Origin: a virus
Lineage: Duplodnaviria; Heunggongvirae; Uroviricota; Caudoviricetes
Length of the DNA: 5,558 nucleotides
Virus record (IMG/VR): IMGVR_UViG_2671180921_000028
Coordinates: 1-5,558 of that record
Strand: one strand, 5' to 3'
Shown here: piece after piece, positions 1-5,558 of the stretch
Position numbering within the stretch: position 1 is the stretch's first letter
Layout of the letters: the number at the start of each line of letters is the position of its first letter
Notes under the pieces: model-generated
The model's database searches: none
Told to the model about the DNA's origin: nothing
What the model saw: the letters and a program-made list of their open reading frames with translations, nothing else
Position numbers and translations under genes: made by a program

Positions 1-489
1 ATGAAACAAATGTCACTAATTGAGATGGATGGTTTTCTGAAAGGTAAATGCATCCCACGAGATTTAAAGGTTAACGAAACAAACGCTGAATATCTGGTGC
101 GTAAATTTGCTGAAGCGGAGGCCAAGATTTCGGCTCTGTCCGAAGACCACCAGAAAGCGATTGAGTCAATTAAGCAGGCTGATTCGGCTGTTAAGTTGGC
201 ACACGAGAAGTTTTCAGCGCTGGCGGCGGAGAATGCTGGGCTGAAACACGCAATGGCTGTAACCCTTGAGCATGTGTCGGTCACGGATGCAGGGCAGGCA
301 GGAGTTGCTGCAATGATTATCAATGATGCCCTGTACCACAGCGAAACCCCAGCCACCGACGCTTTCCTGGCTGAAGTGCGTGCGCAGGGGGTGGAGATGA
401 TGCGCGAACATCCATCAATCAAACTTTGCTCTTTGACGCACATATGTGACGAGTTCGCCGCCCAGCTTCGCAAAGGAGGCAACCAGTGA
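1..489 (+). CDS. Hypothetical prophage early-region protein, coiled-coil rich; may be 5'-truncated by the window edge
   Basis: 162-aa ORF from the track. Its stop TGA (487-489) overlaps the GTG start of the next ORF (GTGA), and the downstream RBS GGAGG lies inside its 3' end. No family recognised. Confidence 0.5.
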   Translation: MKQMSLIEMDGFLKGKCIPRDLKVNETNAEYLVRKFAEAEAKISALSEDHQKAIESIKQADSAVKLAHEKFSALAAENAGLKHAMAVTLEHVSVTDAGQAGVAAMIINDALYHSETPATDAFLAEVRAQGVEMMREHPSIKLCSLTHICDEFAAQLRKGGNQ

Positions 490-761
490 GTGAGTCAAAA
501 TGCCAAATTAATGGCAATAAGATAGAACCGTGCGCGGCGTTGACGCAATCCTTGGAGCATGACGCTGAATACACGACGCGAAAAGGTCTGCTGAAATACA
601 AAATCTATAACCATGCATTAATTCATTCACAAGACCTGATCATGCTGCGATCTGGTGAATTTTCTAAATCGCCGATTCGAGTTTCATTTTGCCCGTTCTG
701 TGGTGAAAGTCTGAAAACGTGGGAAGCGGAGGCAACCAGTGAGTGGAAAAAGAATGACTAA
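486..761 (+). CDS. Small Cys4 (zinc-ribbon-like) hypothetical protein
   Basis: 91-aa ORF with GTG start at 486 preceded by GGAGG (475-479, spacing 6). Four Cys arranged C-x9-C ... C-x2-C (CPFCGE). No earlier in-frame ATG. Confidence 0.5.
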   Translation: MSESKCQINGNKIEPCAALTQSLEHDAEYTTRKGLLKYKIYNHALIHSQDLIMLRSGEFSKSPIRVSFCPFCGESLKTWEAEATSEWKKND

Positions 762-963
762 CAGGGAGCTTGTCGATGCCGCGATTAAGCTTGCTGGTGA
801 TTTTTATTCAATGATGGGGTACGCGCATCGCCCTGGATTCAAATATTGGGAATCACCGCATCCGCAAGAGCAACTGGTATTTCAAATGGCCTGCCGTGCT
901 TTTGAGGTTATTCGCGGTTCTGATGTGATGGACGCCGTTGCCGACTTGGAGGATGAAGAGTGA
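739..963 (+). CDS. Small acidic hypothetical phage protein
   Basis: 74-aa ORF with GTG start at 739 preceded by GGAGG (728-732) within the same 18-bp junction sequence as at 475-492. Alternative ATG at 754 has a weaker RBS. Stop TGA 961-963 overlaps the next GTG start. Confidence 0.45.
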   Translation: MSGKRMTNRELVDAAIKLAGDFYSMMGYAHRPGFKYWESPHPQEQLVFQMACRAFEVIRGSDVMDAVADLEDEE

Positions 964-1391
964 ACAAGATTGACTATCAGGCACTGCGTGAGGCGGCAGT
1001 AGCAATTGAAACAGTAGCAATTGAAACAGTAGCAACACCTCAAAAATTGCTGGCATTTCGTATGAAAGTCACACCTCAGGTTGTGCTGGCTCTACTGGAT
1101 GAACGGGAAAGAAACCAGCAATACATCAAACGACGCGACCAGGAGAACGAGGAGATTGCGCTTACGGTTGGGAAGCTGCGTGTTGAGCTTGAGGCAGAAA
1201 AACAGCGGGCAAAGGATCTATTTATGGAAAATGCTCGGCTTAAGTCAGGTGTAGCCGGTCTGATACACCTCGGTATTCGATATGCAGATGTTGAGGTCAT
1301 GAGAATTGCTGGAGATGCCCAGCTTTCTACCCCATTCACTGACAGCATCATAAACAGCATTGCAACAGGCATTCGCATCAAAGGAGAGTGA
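960..1391 (+). CDS. Ead/Ea22-like coiled-coil protein (putative)
   Basis: 143-aa ORF with GTG start overlapping the upstream stop. N-terminal DYQALREAA motif and a central charged coiled-coil (LRVELEAEKQRAKDL) resemble the lambdoid Ea22-like family as recalled from memory. Contains the in-frame tandem repeat. Confidence 0.45.
   Translation: MNKIDYQALREAAVAIETVAIETVATPQKLLAFRMKVTPQVVLALLDERERNQQYIKRRDQENEEIALTVGKLRVELEAEKQRAKDLFMENARLKSGVAGLIHLGIRYADVEVMRIAGDAQLSTPFTDSIINSIATGIRIKGE
998..1038 (+). repeat. In-frame 15-bp tandem repeat (cagtagcaattgaaa x2 plus an 11-nt partial copy) encoding VAIET-VAIET-VAT
   Basis: Two exact 15-nt units at 998-1012 and 1013-1027, then a partial unit at 1028-1038, all inside the 960-1391 CDS. 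Confidence 0.85.
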
Positions 1392-1392
1392 G

Positions 1393-2148
1393 ATGATTCA
1401 CTATCACGGTGGGCCTATTACTCCTGATACGTGCGCAATGAGAGCATGGAAAGGGCGACATGCGTTTATCAGTTTTGCGCATTCAGGCCAGATCAATCTC
1501 GCGGCTGAATACTGTCAGTCGTTCGCGCTGGACAACGGTGCATTCACCGCCTGGAAAGCAACTGGCAAAAACAAAATCGACTGGAGCGATTACTACGAGT
1601 TTGTTGCTCGCTGGAAGAATCACCCAGGATTCGATTTTGCCATTATCCCGGATGTTATTGATGGCGGAGAGGAGGAAAATGATGCGCTTCTGAATGAGTG
1701 GCCTCACGGAAAACTAGTTGGCGTTCCAGTGTGGCACATGAATGAAAGTGACGAGCGATTTATTCATTTGTGCAATGAGTTTCCGCGAGTGGCTATCGGT
1801 AGTTGTGGCGACTATGACGTAAAGCGCCCAACTCTTGCGGTAGCCAGAATGAAAGACCTGATTCGTCACATTGTTGATGAGCATGGTCAGCCGGTTACGA
1901 AACTACATGGATTGCGCATGTTAAATCCGCTGATATTCACAAAATTACCCTTAGCCAGCGCAGATAGTACGAACGTCGCTCGAAACATCGGTATTGATAA
2001 AGCCTGGTCTGGGGCTTGTGCACCTGCAAGTAAAGAGACACGCGCAGCATTAATGGTAGAACGGATTGAGGCACACAATAGCCCTGGTTCTCTTGCGTAT
2101 TGTGAACAACGCGACCGCTTTGAAATGCAATTGCAACTGGCAGTTTAA
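1393..2148 (+). CDS. tRNA-guanine transglycosylase (TGT)-fold protein, DpdA-like putative DNA 7-deazaguanine transglycosylase
   Basis: ATG at 1393 with AAGGAG (1381-1386, spacing 6), immediately after the upstream stop (1389-1391); preferred over the TTG at 1360. Four motifs match bacterial TGT in the same order: LDNGAF (D47) vs TDSGGFQ, FAIIPD (D87) vs IVMIFDE, AIGSCGD vs YAVGGLA, and ADSTNVARNIG (D191) vs FDCVMPTRNARNG. The C-terminal CxCxxC...H zinc subdomain is absent. Alignment done by eye from memory. Confidence 0.5.
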   Translation: MIHYHGGPITPDTCAMRAWKGRHAFISFAHSGQINLAAEYCQSFALDNGAFTAWKATGKNKIDWSDYYEFVARWKNHPGFDFAIIPDVIDGGEEENDALLNEWPHGKLVGVPVWHMNESDERFIHLCNEFPRVAIGSCGDYDVKRPTLAVARMKDLIRHIVDEHGQPVTKLHGLRMLNPLIFTKLPLASADSTNVARNIGIDKAWSGACAPASKETRAALMVERIEAHNSPGSLAYCEQRDRFEMQLQLAV

Positions 2149-2158
2149 GGACTAACAA

Positions 2159-2722
2159 ATGACCACTATAACCAAAGAGCGACTACTGACAATCAAGCAG
2201 TGGCGCGAAACATACGGACCTGGTAGCAACGTTGTACTGCCAGCAGAAGAAGCGGAAGAACTGGCACGGATTGCGTTAGCCTCACTGGAAGTCGAGCCTG
2301 TAAGCCAAACTTACAACTTGCCAGAATTAATCGAAGGCATGGAAGTTTCCATTGATGTAAGTACTTGTGATGCTGATTTAGGTAATCGCTATTTCGGCAC
2401 CGTCACCGAGGCGTTAGAACTTGATACTGCCAAGAATGGTTACATCCTCCTGGTTCAGGACGCAGAGCCAAACTTCGATATAAATGGCAACTCTCCGGTA
2501 ACTCCGGATGGTTGGATAAGCTGTAGTGAGCGAATGCCAAACGATAAACAGTATGTTTGGTGTTGGGGGAAGTCTTACGGCTGGACTGAGTGCGATACCT
2601 TCGAAGGGTATTACGATTGGTCGAGAAACAAATGGTGGGCAATTACTGACGATGGGGAAGAACCGGCATCGAAAGTAACCCACTGGATGACGCTACCGGA
2701 GCCACCGCAGGAGGTGAAGTGA
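2159..2722 (+). CDS. DUF551-domain phage protein
   Basis: 187-aa ORF with ATG 2159 and AAGGA 7 nt upstream. The Trp-rich C-terminus (WISCSERMP ... KVTHWMTLPEPP) is typical of DUF551 proteins in lambdoid early regions. Confidence 0.65.
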   Translation: MTTITKERLLTIKQWRETYGPGSNVVLPAEEAEELARIALASLEVEPVSQTYNLPELIEGMEVSIDVSTCDADLGNRYFGTVTEALELDTAKNGYILLVQDAEPNFDINGNSPVTPDGWISCSERMPNDKQYVWCWGKSYGWTECDTFEGYYDWSRNKWWAITDDGEEPASKVTHWMTLPEPPQEVK

Positions 2723-3006
2723 TGGACTCCTTCGCGAAATATACGATTATTGACTGGGTAGCCTTCCTTCAGTTTTTGCTCATCTGGTTTTATATGGCTT
2801 ACAGGAGTGGACAGTGGATTGTCAGTGTAGCCTGTAGCAAGGGATGGCGTTGGTGGAACCGAAAGAATAAAAAAGCGCTGGCCTTGGATTCGTTTTACGA
2901 AGCATTCAATCTTAACAGCCTTCAGCCTGGTTCTGTCGTTGTAGTCACCACTCAAAGCGGCATGACGATACAAATTCACAAGCCAAAGGAGGAAGGTCGT
3001 GGCTAA
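2722..3006 (+). CDS. Small putative single-pass membrane protein
   Basis: ATG 2722 (or GTG 2719) with GGAGG at 2710-2714, overlapping the upstream stop (2720-2722). Hydrophobic N-terminal segment YTIIDWVAFLQFLLIWFYMAY followed by a basic stretch. Confidence 0.5.
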   Translation: MDSFAKYTIIDWVAFLQFLLIWFYMAYRSGQWIVSVACSKGWRWWNRKNKKALALDSFYEAFNLNSLQPGSVVVVTTQSGMTIQIHKPKEEGRG

Positions 3007-3283
3007 CCTGCAACTTGCCGTTAAAGGTGAATACTTCGATGCCATGATTCGAGGAGAGAAAACGGAAGAGTATCGCCTGTGTAATGACTACTGGAATAAG
3101 CGAATTATGTTCCGGGAGTATGACCGCCTGATTATCACAAAGGGATATCCTAAGCGTGACGATTCCAGCCGCAGAATTGACGTTCCGTATGGCGGATATG
3201 AAATCAAGACAATCACACACCCGCACTTCGGCGATAAACCGGTAAAGGTTTACGCGATAAAGGTAAATATCGGCAATGAATAA
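2999..3283 (+). CDS. ASCH-like (PUA-fold, DUF3850/YqfB-like) protein
   Basis: GTG start 2999 with AAGGAGG (2986-2992), overlapping the upstream stop. N-terminal KGEYFDAMIRGEKTEEYR matches the ASCH signature pattern (F..a..G.KT.e.R) recalled from YqfB and DUF3850 proteins. Confidence 0.5.
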   Translation: MANLQLAVKGEYFDAMIRGEKTEEYRLCNDYWNKRIMFREYDRLIITKGYPKRDDSSRRIDVPYGGYEIKTITHPHFGDKPVKVYAIKVNIGNE

Positions 3284-3287
3284 CAAT

Positions 3288-3342
3288 CCTCGCACTCGCG
3301 GGGATTTCTTTTATCTGAACTCGCTACGGCGAGTTTTGTTTT
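3288..3342 (+). terminator. Tandem rho-independent terminator hairpins closing the accessory operon
   Basis: Hairpin 1: CCTCGC-actc-GCGGGG (3288-3303, one G-U pair) followed by ATTTCTTTT. Hairpin 2: AACTCGC-tacg-GCGAGTT (3318-3335) followed by TTTGTTTT. Confidence 0.6.
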
Positions 3343-3355
3343 ATGGAGATGATAA

Positions 3356-3523
3356 ATGCACTTCCGAGTCACAGGTGAATGGAATGGAGAACCATTCAAC
3401 AGAGTTATCGAAGCAGAGGACATCAACGACTGCTATGACCACTGGATGCTATGGGCGCAGATAGCACATGCAGACATAACCAATATTCGAATTGAAGAAC
3501 TGAAAGAACACCAAGCCGCCTGA
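3356..3523 (+). CDS. Unlisted small ORF (55 aa, MHFRVTGEWNGEPFNRVIEAEDINDCYDHWMLWAQIAHADITNIRIEELKEHQAA)
   Basis: ATG 3356 with GGAG (3345-3348, spacing 7), stop TGA 3521-3523. Below the track length cut-off. Sits between the terminators and torI. No family recognised. Confidence 0.4.
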   Translation: MHFRVTGEWNGEPFNRVIEAEDINDCYDHWMLWAQIAHADITNIRIEELKEHQAA

Positions 3524-3535
3524 TGGTGGTTTTTT
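3516..3535 (+). terminator. Weak putative intrinsic terminator
   Basis: CCGCC-tgat-GGTGG (5 bp stem with one G-U pair) followed by TTTTTTATT. Overlaps the stop codon of the 55-aa ORF. Confidence 0.3.
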
Positions 3536-3545
3536 ATTGCCTGAT

Positions 3546-3561
3546 TTGCAGGTTCGATTCC
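3546..3561 (+). other. tRNA-like fragment (T-stem/T-loop, TTGCAGGTTCGATTCC) just upstream of torI
   Basis: Contains the canonical T-arm motif GGTTCGATTCC. From memory it is identical to the argW segment immediately 5' of the att core. No acceptor or anticodon arms are present, so it is not a tRNA gene. Confidence 0.5.
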
Positions 3562-3580
3562 CTATTCGGAGATAGCACTC

Positions 3581-3781
3581 ATGCAACACGAACTACAGCC
3601 TGATTCACTGGTTGATTTGAAATTCATCATGGCCGATACTGGCTTCGGTAAAACCTTCATCTATGACCGGATTAAGTCCGGGGACCTGCCTAAAGCCAAA
3701 GTTATCCACGGGCGAGCAAGATGGTTATATCGTGACCATTGTGAATTCAAAAATAAGCTCTTAAGCCGCGCCAATGGGTAA
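3581..3781 (+). CDS. torI: TorI, excisionase-like recombination directionality factor and Tor response-regulator inhibitor
   Basis: 66-aa ORF recognised as E. coli TorI/AlpA-Xis-type winged-helix protein, with GGAG RBS at 3568-3571. Lies at the att-proximal end of the prophage, as in KplE1. Confidence 0.85.
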   Translation: MQHELQPDSLVDLKFIMADTGFGKTFIYDRIKSGDLPKAKVIHGRARWLYRDHCEFKNKLLSRANG

Positions 3782-3797
3782 AATAGCGGGTAAAATA
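3776..3797 (+). repeat. Direct repeat GGGTAAAATA-gc-GGGTAAAATA overlapping the torI stop codon
   Basis: Two exact 10-nt copies at 3776-3785 and 3788-3797, followed by an A/T-rich tract. Candidate protein-binding sites in the attR arm. Confidence 0.6.
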
Positions 3798-3853
3798 TTT
3801 TTCACATCTAAAAAACACCATTCCAATCAATCCCCTGCCGCTTCAAGTAGATG

Positions 3854-3869
3854 CCTGCAGGGGACACCA
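3854..3869 (+). other. attR core: 16-nt copy of the 3' end of tRNA-Arg(CCU) argW (CCTGCAGGGGACACCA)
   Basis: Matches the 3' T-stem, acceptor 3' strand, discriminator and CCA of argW as recalled. Upstream sequence diverges from the tRNA. Flanked by the inverted repeat CCCCTGC (3832-3838) / GCAGGGG (3857-3863). Confidence 0.7.
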
Positions 3870-4257
3870 GATACCCTTCAAACGAAATCTACCTTCACCC
3901 CGTAAAAGATGGGTTTGGCAGCACACTTGCCTTATATCTACTCATTTTTACTGCAACAGGTTGAAATCTCAGCACTGTCAGAAAGCGCTGATGACTAAAC
4001 AGCCCTGGGCCGGGCGATGTAACCATCACACAGAATCCTGATAGCGAAATATGGCGTGACTCGATACTTCACTCCGCAATGCATTCCTTGATGAATTCGC
4101 AGGACCGTGATACACGGGACAGGTCACTGAATGACGACAATGTCCTGGAAATCAGCGAACCGCGCATCTGAAGTACATTTGAGCGACTGTACCAGAACAT
4201 GAATGAGGCGTTTGGATTAGGCGATTATTAGCAGGGCTAAGCATTTTACTATTATTA

Positions 4258-4301
4258 TTTTCCGGTTGAGGGATATAGAGCTATCGACAACAACCGGAAA
4301 A
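4258..4301. repeat. Perfect 11-bp inverted repeat (TTTTCCGGTTG ... CAACCGGAAAA) with a 22-nt loop, just 3' of cscB
   Basis: Arms at 4258-4268 and 4291-4301. Lies 10-50 nt beyond the cscB stop on the minus strand. No clean U-run on either strand, so it is not a canonical intrinsic terminator. Confidence 0.5.
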
Positions 4302-4310
4302 AGTTTACGT

Positions 4311-5558
4311 CTATATTGCTGAAGGTACAGGCGTTTCCATAACTATTTGCTCGCGTTTTTTACTCAAGAAGAAAATGCCAAATAGCAACATCAGGCAGAC
4401 AATACCCGAAATTGCGAAGAAAACTGTCTGGTAGCCTGCGTGGTCAAAGAGTATCCCAGTCGGCGTTGAAAGCAGCACAATCCCAAGCGAACTGGCAATT
4501 TGAAAACCAATCAGAAAGATCGTCGACGACAGGCGCTTATCAAAGTTTGCCACGCTGTATTTGAAGACGGATATGACACAAAGTGGAACCTCAATGGCAT
4601 GTAACAACTTCACTAATGAAATAATCCAGGGGTTAACGAACAGCGCGCAGGAAAGGATACGCAACGCCATAATCACAACTCCGATAAGTAATGCATTTTT
4701 TGGCCCTACCCGATTCACAAAGAAAGGAATAATCGCCATGCACAGCGCTTCGAGTACCACCTGGAATGAGTTGAGATAACCATACAGGCGCGTTCCTACA
4801 TCGTGTGATTCGAATAAACCTGCATAAAAGACAGGAAAAAGTTGTTGATCAAAAATGTTATAGAAAGACCACGTCCCCACAATAAATATGACGAAAACCC
4901 AGAAGTTTCGATCCTTGAAAACTGCGATAAAATCCTCTTTTTTTACCCCTCCCGCATCTGCCGCTACGCACTGGTGATCCTTATCTTTAAAACGCATGTT
5001 GATCATCATAAATACAGCGCCAAATAGCGAGACCAACCAGAAGTTGATATGGGGACTGATACTAAAAAATATGCCGGCAAAGAACGCGCCAATAGCATAG
5101 CCAAAAGATCCCCAGGCGCGCGCTGTTCCATATTCGAAATGAAAATTTCGCGCCATTTTTTCGGTGAAGCTATCAAGCAAACCGCATCCCGCCAGATACC
5201 CCAAGCCAAAAAATAGCGCCCCCAGAATTAGACCTACAGAAAAATTGCTTTGCAGTAACGGTTCATAAACGTAAATCATAAACGGTCCGGTCAAGACCAG
5301 GATGAAACTCATACACCAGATGAGCGGTTTCTTCAGACCGAGTTTATCCTGAACGATGCCGTAGAACATCATAAATAGAATGCTGGTAAACTGGTTGACC
5401 GAATAAAGTGTACCTAATTCCGTCCCTGTCAACCCTAGATGTCCTTTCAGCCAAATAGCGTATAACGACCACCACAGCGACCAGGAAATAAAAAAGAGAA
5501 ATGAGTAACTGGATGCAAAACGATAGTACGCATTTCTGAATGGAATATTCAGTGCCAT
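4311..5558 (-). CDS. cscB: Sucrose:H+ symporter CscB (oligosaccharide:H+ symporter family of MFS)
   Basis: 415-aa ORF with N-terminus MALNIPFRNAYYRFASSYSFLFF, recognised as CscB. Clear LacY-family motifs (DKLGLKK, FEYGTARAWG, YNIFDQQ, NRVGPKNALL, FKYSVANFDKR). Start codon is the last 3 nt of the window; stop TAG at 4311-4313. Confidence 0.9.
   Translation of the reverse strand: MALNIPFRNAYYRFASSYSFLFFISWSLWWSLYAIWLKGHLGLTGTELGTLYSVNQFTSILFMMFYGIVQDKLGLKKPLIWCMSFILVLTGPFMIYVYEPLLQSNFSVGLILGALFFGLGYLAGCGLLDSFTEKMARNFHFEYGTARAWGSFGYAIGAFFAGIFFSISPHINFWLVSLFGAVFMMINMRFKDKDHQCVAADAGGVKKEDFIAVFKDRNFWVFVIFIVGTWSFYNIFDQQLFPVFYAGLFESHDVGTRLYGYLNSFQVVLEALCMAIIPFFVNRVGPKNALLIGVVIMALRILSCALFVNPWIISLVKLLHAIEVPLCVISVFKYSVANFDKRLSSTIFLIGFQIASSLGIVLLSTPTGILFDHAGYQTVFFAISGIVCLMLLFGIFFLSKKREQIVMETPVPSAI

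Follow-up and report, generated by a model that had tools for sequence, protein, structure and literature searches.

Does a short reading frame that lies directly upstream of an excision gene, with predicted terminators on both sides, take part in excision? The question arises in a 5,558-nt stretch of a tailed-phage record (IMG/VR IMGVR_UViG_2671180921_000028, positions 1 to 5,558; hereafter the window), in which an ORF at 3356..3523 on the + strand (ATG to TGA, 55 aa, 6.6 kDa) precedes torI, the gene for the recombination directionality factor (RDF) of KplE1/HK620-type argW prophages. The original prediction described this ORF as unlisted, as having a good ribosome-binding site and as insulated between a double terminator and a weaker hairpin, and proposed that it regulates torI or excision.

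The ORF is preceded by a Shine-Dalgarno sequence, GGAG (3345..3348, + strand), 7 nt 5' of the ATG, in agreement with that description, and almost all of 69 distinct upstream variants retain the GGAG. Its product is identical to phage lambda lambdap35 (NP_597778, encoded by orf55 at NC_001416 complement 29118..29285) at 52 of 55 residues (95%) and matches PHROG 676 with an E-value of 1.1e-39 over residues 1-55 of a 55-position profile. By sequence similarity, the ORF is an intact member of the phage lambda orf55 family. It is thus already known, being a lambda early gene catalogued ever since the lambda sequence was analysed, and an ordinary feature: the lambda exo-xis region has seven ORFs (PMC3824215), the last of which, directly before xis, is orf55, and the gene is also discussed in two other papers (PMC8614690, PMC9239242). 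Like family members in lambdoid or P22-like phages, it lies in the early-left operon and is co-oriented with recombination and accessory genes. The term "unlisted" was correct for the ORF track used in the original prediction only, whereas RefSeq/PGAP annotates the frame, as a hypothetical protein, in thousands of records. Searches with the 55-aa product gave no family match in Pfam (E ≤ 1), NCBIfam or PADLOC, a PDB sequence-profile search returned just an 11-residue chance match to nitrite reductase, and a full-text literature search with the peptide sequence gave no match.

We surveyed 5,426 complete E. coli genomes for the 248-nt orf55 region (at least 90% identity and at least 80% coverage) and found it in 2,181 of them (about 40%), in up to 8 places per genome. 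The region was also present in 87 phage records, including lambda, 434, HK022, HK106, HK140, HK630, Stx phages and Kapi1. Additional matches occurred in assemblies labelled Shewanella, Pseudomonas, Bradyrhizobium, Kitasatospora, Oceanobacillus and others, on contigs that were either ~48.4 kb or very short and had low coverage; these matches were 95% identical to the query, which is lambda's own identity, and almost certainly represent contamination with lambda control DNA. A genome-contig scan for orf55 relatives yielded mostly such contamination and was useless for assessing diversity.

Three hairpins followed by T tracts surround the gene on the + strand. H1 (3285..3316, hairpin 3285-3306, 9 pairs, loop ACTC, T tract TTTCTTTTAT) starts 2 nt past the stop codon of the preceding gene and is followed immediately by H2 (3317..3346, hairpin 3317-3336, 8 pairs, loop TACG, T tract TTTTGTTTTAT); H3 (3513..3538, hairpin 3513-3532, 8 pairs) closes the unit. 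Their stems of 8-9 pairs are the longest among 13 terminator-like sites in the window, and a terminator scan found no + strand terminator-like site in the 3.2 kb of + strand genes 5' of H1. Predicted RNA folds were -13.1 kcal/mol for H1 (z -5.5 against shuffled sequences), -11.9 for H2 (z -4.1) and -11.1 for H3 (z -2.6), so that the ORF does lie between two upstream hairpins and a weaker downstream one, as had been claimed. The weakness of H3 includes a C-to-T change (G-C to G.U) found in the window and in only this 1 of about 170 copies; the consensus H3 folds at -13.0 kcal/mol. All three sites combine a G+C-rich stem-loop with a U tract directly behind it in the transcribed strand and are predicted intrinsic terminators. 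The orf55 TGA (3521-3523) forms the loop of H3 and the last sense codons form its left arm, a geometry kept in nearly all orf55 copies. Most variants of H2 turn a U-A pair into U.G, and one carries a double compensatory change; in other contexts different hairpins replace H1 in front of orf55. The hairpins correspond to the lambda terminators t3, t4 and t5 predicted by ARNold (Bloch et al. 2014, PMC4195576), from which they differ by 1-2 substitutions; t3-t5 are computational predictions, as are H1-H3 here. An H3-type site is also annotated as a rho-independent terminator in phage HK140. A search of the whole window against Rfam at a permissive threshold found no known RNA family, and two sub-threshold matches over H1-H2, to rsmX (E 0.48) and to a Leu leader on the - strand (E 0.74), were attributed to chance.

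To estimate how often orf55 is intact, we used 120 IMG/VR loci fetched by the non-coding H1 sequence only, thereby avoiding selection for intact copies; this set replaced a protein-anchored viral set, which was dropped because it selects intact copies. Sequence of orf55 was present in 75 of the loci, with 67 intact copies, 3 disrupted copies (one frameshift and two nonsense changes) and 5 partial copies that keep just the 3' 52 nt with H3. The frameshifts or stops in homologues that were to be looked for are therefore rare, 67 of 70 full-length copies (96%) being intact. Across 50 distinct intact haplotypes, pN/pS was 0.27, the lowest of the + strand frames (codon-bootstrap 95% CI 0.11-0.63, with 0.18% of bootstraps at or above 1), showing that the ORF is conserved and under purifying selection. 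These two results identify orf55 as a real gene. One reverse frame also has a low pN/pS (0.29), and its wobble positions fall on those of the orf55 sense frame; antisense coding across orf55 was rejected, as this frame does not stay open throughout and extends into a non-conserved flank.

An exhaustive profile search of 1.84 billion representative proteins recovered 52 clusters in total. Full-length relatives have 51-57 aa and 40-56% identity; W9 and E19 are invariant in the distant ones, and T6, N10, F14, E21 and D25 are nearly invariant. The orf55 family is thus small, narrow and genuinely protein-coding. That the ORF is instead a chance or decaying frame between functional terminators, yielding no functional protein, is hardly credible: the 8 disrupted or partial copies among 75, together with many chimeric or truncated clusters, would fit such an origin, but they stand against the intactness and constraint described above, the preservation of length and motif in relatives with diverged nucleotide sequence, and a confident fold prediction. 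Two unusual proteins were seen in these searches. P0096 (141 aa) had the appearance of an orf55-torI fusion, orf55 and torI sharing one frame, and was rejected as a gene-calling artefact in which both in-frame TGA codons were read as Trp. P0099 (112 aa) corresponds to a natural deletion that joined the ASCH-like upstream gene to orf55 and removed H1 and H2.

The gene, its ribosome-binding site and its hairpins form a mosaic cassette of ~260 bp (3277..3535, + strand). About 95-99% of its nucleotides are identical in lambda and in many prophages of lambdoid or P22-like type. Starts of similarity cluster at 3277-3281 and ends at 3535-3543, both flanks diverge completely, and alignments with lambda and with a P22-like prophage at sbcB have no gaps between a point just 5' of H1 and the H3 T tract; the joints of the cassette fall in T tracts. 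The gene 3' of H3 may be lambda xis, torI or, in HK140, a xis of the AlpA type; elsewhere the site holds a short ORF with a P22-type xis behind it, or an unrelated accessory gene of 114 aa. An unrelated accessory gene comes next to the cassette in 24 loci. After the H1-H2-GGAG unit, genes other than orf55 are present in half of the H1-anchored loci, and at least eight unrelated genes take up this position. The double hairpin with its GGAG (3285-3348) appears as a portable boundary, and the genes found behind it in IMG/VR contigs include a Xis-like gene and a gene of the PHROG 887 family.

Overlapping + strand accessory genes fill positions 1-3283 of the window; the last gene of this tightly packed block (2999..3283, + strand) is ASCH-domain-like and matches PHROG 625. 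In relatives, the upstream genes on the same strand include ERF/Rad52, Abc anti-RecBCD and Ea22-like genes. The exact Orf55 protein of the window occurs in many argW prophages adjoining csc sucrose genes, in which the upstream neighbour varies (ASCH-like, lambda Ea8.5-like or theta-like) and the downstream order orf55-torI-attR is constant; 92 complete genomes cover at least 80% of positions 2700-4320, a segment extending from a DUF4752 gene through orf55 and torI to the end of cscB. The prophage end adjoins the csc sucrose-utilisation locus (4311-5558, - strand), not dsdC as in K-12; this locus encodes a 415-aa LacY-family permease, which in relatives is followed by a PfkB kinase gene and cscA. 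Two other features of the accessory block were observed. A 251-aa gene at 1393-2148 matches PHROG 887, "queuine tRNA-ribosyltransferase" (E 9e-102), with no Pfam or NCBIfam match, and its product may be a DNA/tRNA-guanine transglycosylase-like accessory protein of the early-left operon. A perfect 15-nt tandem repeat of 2.6 copies (CAGTAGCAATTGAAA; 997-1035) lies inside the Ea22-like ORF 960-1391 and encodes the peptide AVAIETVAIETVAT.

Downstream of the cassette, the next ORF (3581..3781, + strand) encodes a protein 100% identical to K-12 TorI, and orf55 is indeed directly upstream of torI. A 16-nt exact copy of the T-arm region of the tRNA gene argW (TTGCAGGTTCGATTCC; 3546..3561, + strand) lies on the 5' side of the torI ATG at a distance of 35 nt; it is part of the recombination module of torI and not of the orf55 cassette. 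The attR core (CCTGCAGGGGACACCA; 3854..3869, + strand), which equals the last 16 nt of argW, begins 73 nt past the torI stop and marks the prophage end, with the csc genes beyond it on the - strand. The 3' half of the tRNA-Arg gene argW is thus split around torI. In argW itself the two pieces share CC, and the layout looks like the insertion of a 292-nt torI segment into 30 nt of argW-derived sequence in the phage att region. Of 41 torI loci, 40 contained the upstream argW piece, K-12 and phage Kapi1 among them.

In the copies examined, torI was always preceded by a hairpin and a T tract, either H3 or another one behind a xis-remnant ORF. In torI loci that lack orf55, a short ORF lies upstream whose 3' end encodes an excisionase-type HTH fragment (MESHSLTLDEACAFLQISRPT...; a sub-threshold HTH_17 match, E 0.001) and which has its own hairpin (CCGCATCAATGCGG) and T tract; K-12 ypdJ is a degenerate version of this ORF (L002, 4095-4235). 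A terminator before every examined torI copy fits the published view that excision of KplE1-type prophages is controlled via expression of the RDF gene (PMC2951348).

The closest known arrangements place the window locus in context. Compared with lambda, the RBS, the two upstream hairpins and one downstream hairpin, and the position as last gene before an RDF gene are the same; however, the window has torI downstream where lambda has xis, an ASCH-like gene upstream where lambda has ea8.5, and one weakening substitution in H3. Kapi1, a functional P22-like phage that integrates at argW, has the same order of orf55 homologue (96% identity), 201-nt excisionase gene and att site (Kapi1_002 and Kapi1_001, MT813197), although its upstream accessory genes differ from those of the window. 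The orf55-torI-att arrangement is therefore already present in an annotated functional phage. In K-12, ypdJ (b4545) occupies the same site directly upstream of torI, between yfdT and torI in KplE1/CPS-53, and the sequence shared with the window begins at the T tract before the argW-like 16-mer. However, ypdJ is unrelated in sequence to orf55, ypdJ-type ORFs end in the HTH fragment mentioned above, and the hairpin after them is degenerate in K-12. The suggestion that small excision-control or remnant genes reside at this site is borne out for K-12, which has a remnant there.

These contexts bear on the original proposal that Orf55 regulates torI in trans or works together with the excision machinery (Int/RDF), which we now regard as very unlikely. 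It is true that E. coli phages, including the functional phages lambda, HK140 and Kapi1, show orf55 next to an RDF gene in four different contexts. However, the downstream RDF families are mutually unrelated, which makes a specific protein partner unlikely, and the same cassette precedes other, unrelated genes. Family-wide linkage of orf55 to integrase or att was not found: the distant homologues (40-55% identity) are not next to RDF or integrase genes, and in Proteus phage Brookers, Morganella phage IME1369_01 and a Flyfo siphovirus the homologue is an early-left gene in the vicinity of kil, cIII and exonuclease genes, with neither a terminator after it nor an RDF gene nearby. Excision proteins of the Xis, TorI and AlpA types have a winged-helix or HTH domain for DNA binding and are usually basic. 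Orf55 is acidic (pI 4.7, net charge -7), gave no match to HTH families, and models as a Gp2-like beta-beta-alpha-beta fold. An acidic fold without a DNA-binding motif, together with the contexts of the homologues, argues against a dedicated regulator of torI or excision. Adjacency to torI is best explained by a cassette that occupies the variable, integrase-proximal end of the early-left operon.

How, then, would orf55 be expressed? No sigma70-like promoter site was found in positions 2900-4000, and a cII-type TTGC-N6-TTGC site, as at lambda pI, was ruled out, the window having TTGC-N5-TTGC. Only 9 nt separate the T tract of H2 from the orf55 ATG, and the GGAG overlaps the last bases of the tract. 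Because of this overlap and the lack of a promoter-like site, orf55 should be reached solely by read-through of H1 and H2. In this respect the locus may be compared with morons, the promoter-gene-terminator cassettes of lambdoid phages: orf55 is likewise a small accessory gene on an autonomous mosaic cassette ending in a terminator, but it lacks a promoter-like site of its own and has terminators upstream, so independent expression in the lysogen is not expected.

The N and gp24 proteins make the early-left transcript resistant to terminators in lambdoid and P22-like phages. The explanation that we consider probable overall is that orf55 is carried on a mosaic cassette, depends on antitermination and encodes a binder of a host protein rather than an excision regulator. 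By recombination at T tracts, the cassette would have come to lie in an argW prophage (KplE1/HK620/Kapi1-type), at that end of the early-left operon which is nearest the integrase gene. In the lysogen, H1-H3 would stop unmodified polymerase before it reaches torI. Transcription of orf55 would most likely occur just when N/gp24-type antiterminated early-left transcription passes H1 and H2 after induction or infection, giving a delayed-early timing on induction; this dependence on antiterminated read-through is what the lack of an own promoter most likely entails, and we infer it from the phage type because the antitermination genes lie outside the window. Terminators a few bp past a translated gene have been found to be almost fully repressed in vivo (PMC4824070), and by analogy ribosomes would be expected to mask H1 and H3. 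That would leave H2 as the effective barrier, with H3 working mostly on transcripts that are not translated.

Such masking also underlies a cis-acting alternative, close to the original idea, in which a ribosome that ends translation of orf55 in the H3 loop covers this hairpin and polymerase can continue into torI, while untranslated transcripts terminate, so that translation of the ORF tunes expression of torI or xis. The location of the TGA in the H3 loop, retained in nearly all copies, the in vivo repression of terminators just past translated genes, and the finding that, in most contexts from E. coli phages, the gene right after the cassette encodes an RDF are consistent with this scheme. 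However, transcripts at orf55 have already passed H1 and H2 and are for that reason probably antiterminated, in which case they would ignore H3, and no internal promoter-like site is available to supply others. The scheme also requires neither the observed constraint on the amino acid sequence (pN/pS 0.27) nor its preservation at 40-56% identity in phages without a following terminator or RDF gene, and in the 24 loci mentioned above the cassette is followed by an unrelated accessory gene. We therefore consider a cis-acting gate improbable and return to antiterminated expression of a protein that most likely binds a host protein.

The structural model provides a candidate for this host protein. 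AlphaFold2 predicted a beta-beta-alpha-beta fold for Orf55 (pLDDT 88.6; E2-9, E12-19, H23-37, E41-49), in which one helix packs on a three-stranded sheet. The top PDB match in a Foldseek search was T7 Gp2, an inhibitor of E. coli RNA polymerase, in complex with this enzyme (4lk0_M and 4llg_M,N; probability 0.99, TM 0.58-0.70, rmsd 2.0-2.5 Å), followed by the RNA polymerase epsilon subunit YkzG and then by p56, a uracil-DNA-glycosylase inhibitor, and the antitoxin Dmd, the last two being weaker than Gp2 (E 0.5-1.9). The matches to BFVD viral models also included several proteins annotated as RNA polymerase inhibitors. The structural matches are weak, neither library searched having given a Foldseek match at E ≤ 0.001. 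A Gp2-like structure has already been proposed for lambda Orf55 (PMC8614690) and was reproduced independently here.

The modelled Orf55 shares with Gp2 (PDB 2wnm, 4lk0, 4llg) the beta-beta-alpha-beta topology and a similar size (about 50-65 residues); both are early phage proteins, and five acidic residues and R58 of Gp2 align with acidic residues and R45 of Orf55. In contrast, no sequence or profile homology was detectable: hhalign of Orf55 against T7 Gp2 gave a probability of 1.9%, and Gp2 was absent from the Orf55 PDB profile search at E ≤ 10. Inhibitors of the Gp2 type bind the beta' jaw of RNA polymerase and inhibit open-complex formation. As cited in PMC8614690, Gp2 requires R56 and R58 on strand beta3 to bind this jaw; their equivalents in Orf55 are N43 and R45, and R45 is replaced by Q, V, E, H, N or D in other family members. 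Small proteins commonly adopt a beta-beta-alpha-beta fold. Since lambdoid phages rely on the RNA polymerase of the host, a full Gp2-like shut-off would be self-defeating. On the basis of the model, RNA polymerase, bound in the manner of T7 Gp2, would be the best single guess for a specific target of Orf55, though a tentative one. The fuller scheme, in which Orf55 would be the lambdoid counterpart of Gp2, docking on RNA polymerase (beta' jaw/sigma70 region 1.1) and re-tuning host transcription during induction, with its own translation through the H3 loop helping to set the flow of polymerase to the excision gene, is speculative and on balance doubtful. If true, it would imply a widespread prophage-encoded RNA polymerase modulator that is physically coupled to the RDF gate.

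The alternative that survives best is that Orf55 targets a different host function, either by blocking replication initiation ("Bin") or as a DNA-mimic or anti-defence inhibitor like p56; we view it as possible, to much the same tentative degree as RNA polymerase. In the passage that Gourse and co-workers devote to Sergueev et al. 2002, orf73, ea22, ea8.5 and orf55 are implicated in inhibiting host replication initiation, Bin having been mapped to the corresponding lambda segment orf73-ea22-ea8.5-orf55 (PMC9239242). The net charge of -7, the presence of p56 and Dmd among the fold matches, and the neighbouring accessory genes of relatives, which include anti-RecBCD and Lar restriction-alleviation genes, also speak for such a different target. 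On the other hand, that passage assigns Bin to the gene cluster, not to orf55, and Orf73 may explain it; the p56 and Dmd matches are weaker than those to Gp2, and searches of PADLOC and the other family collections listed above gave no match.

The gene orf55, its predicted terminators and the Gp2-like hypothesis are all already in the lambda literature, and as a discovery the locus matters little. What the window shows is that the orf55 cassette is a self-contained mosaic unit moving between unrelated recombination modules. As orf55 is very common in E. coli prophages, assigning it a function would annotate thousands of genes at once.
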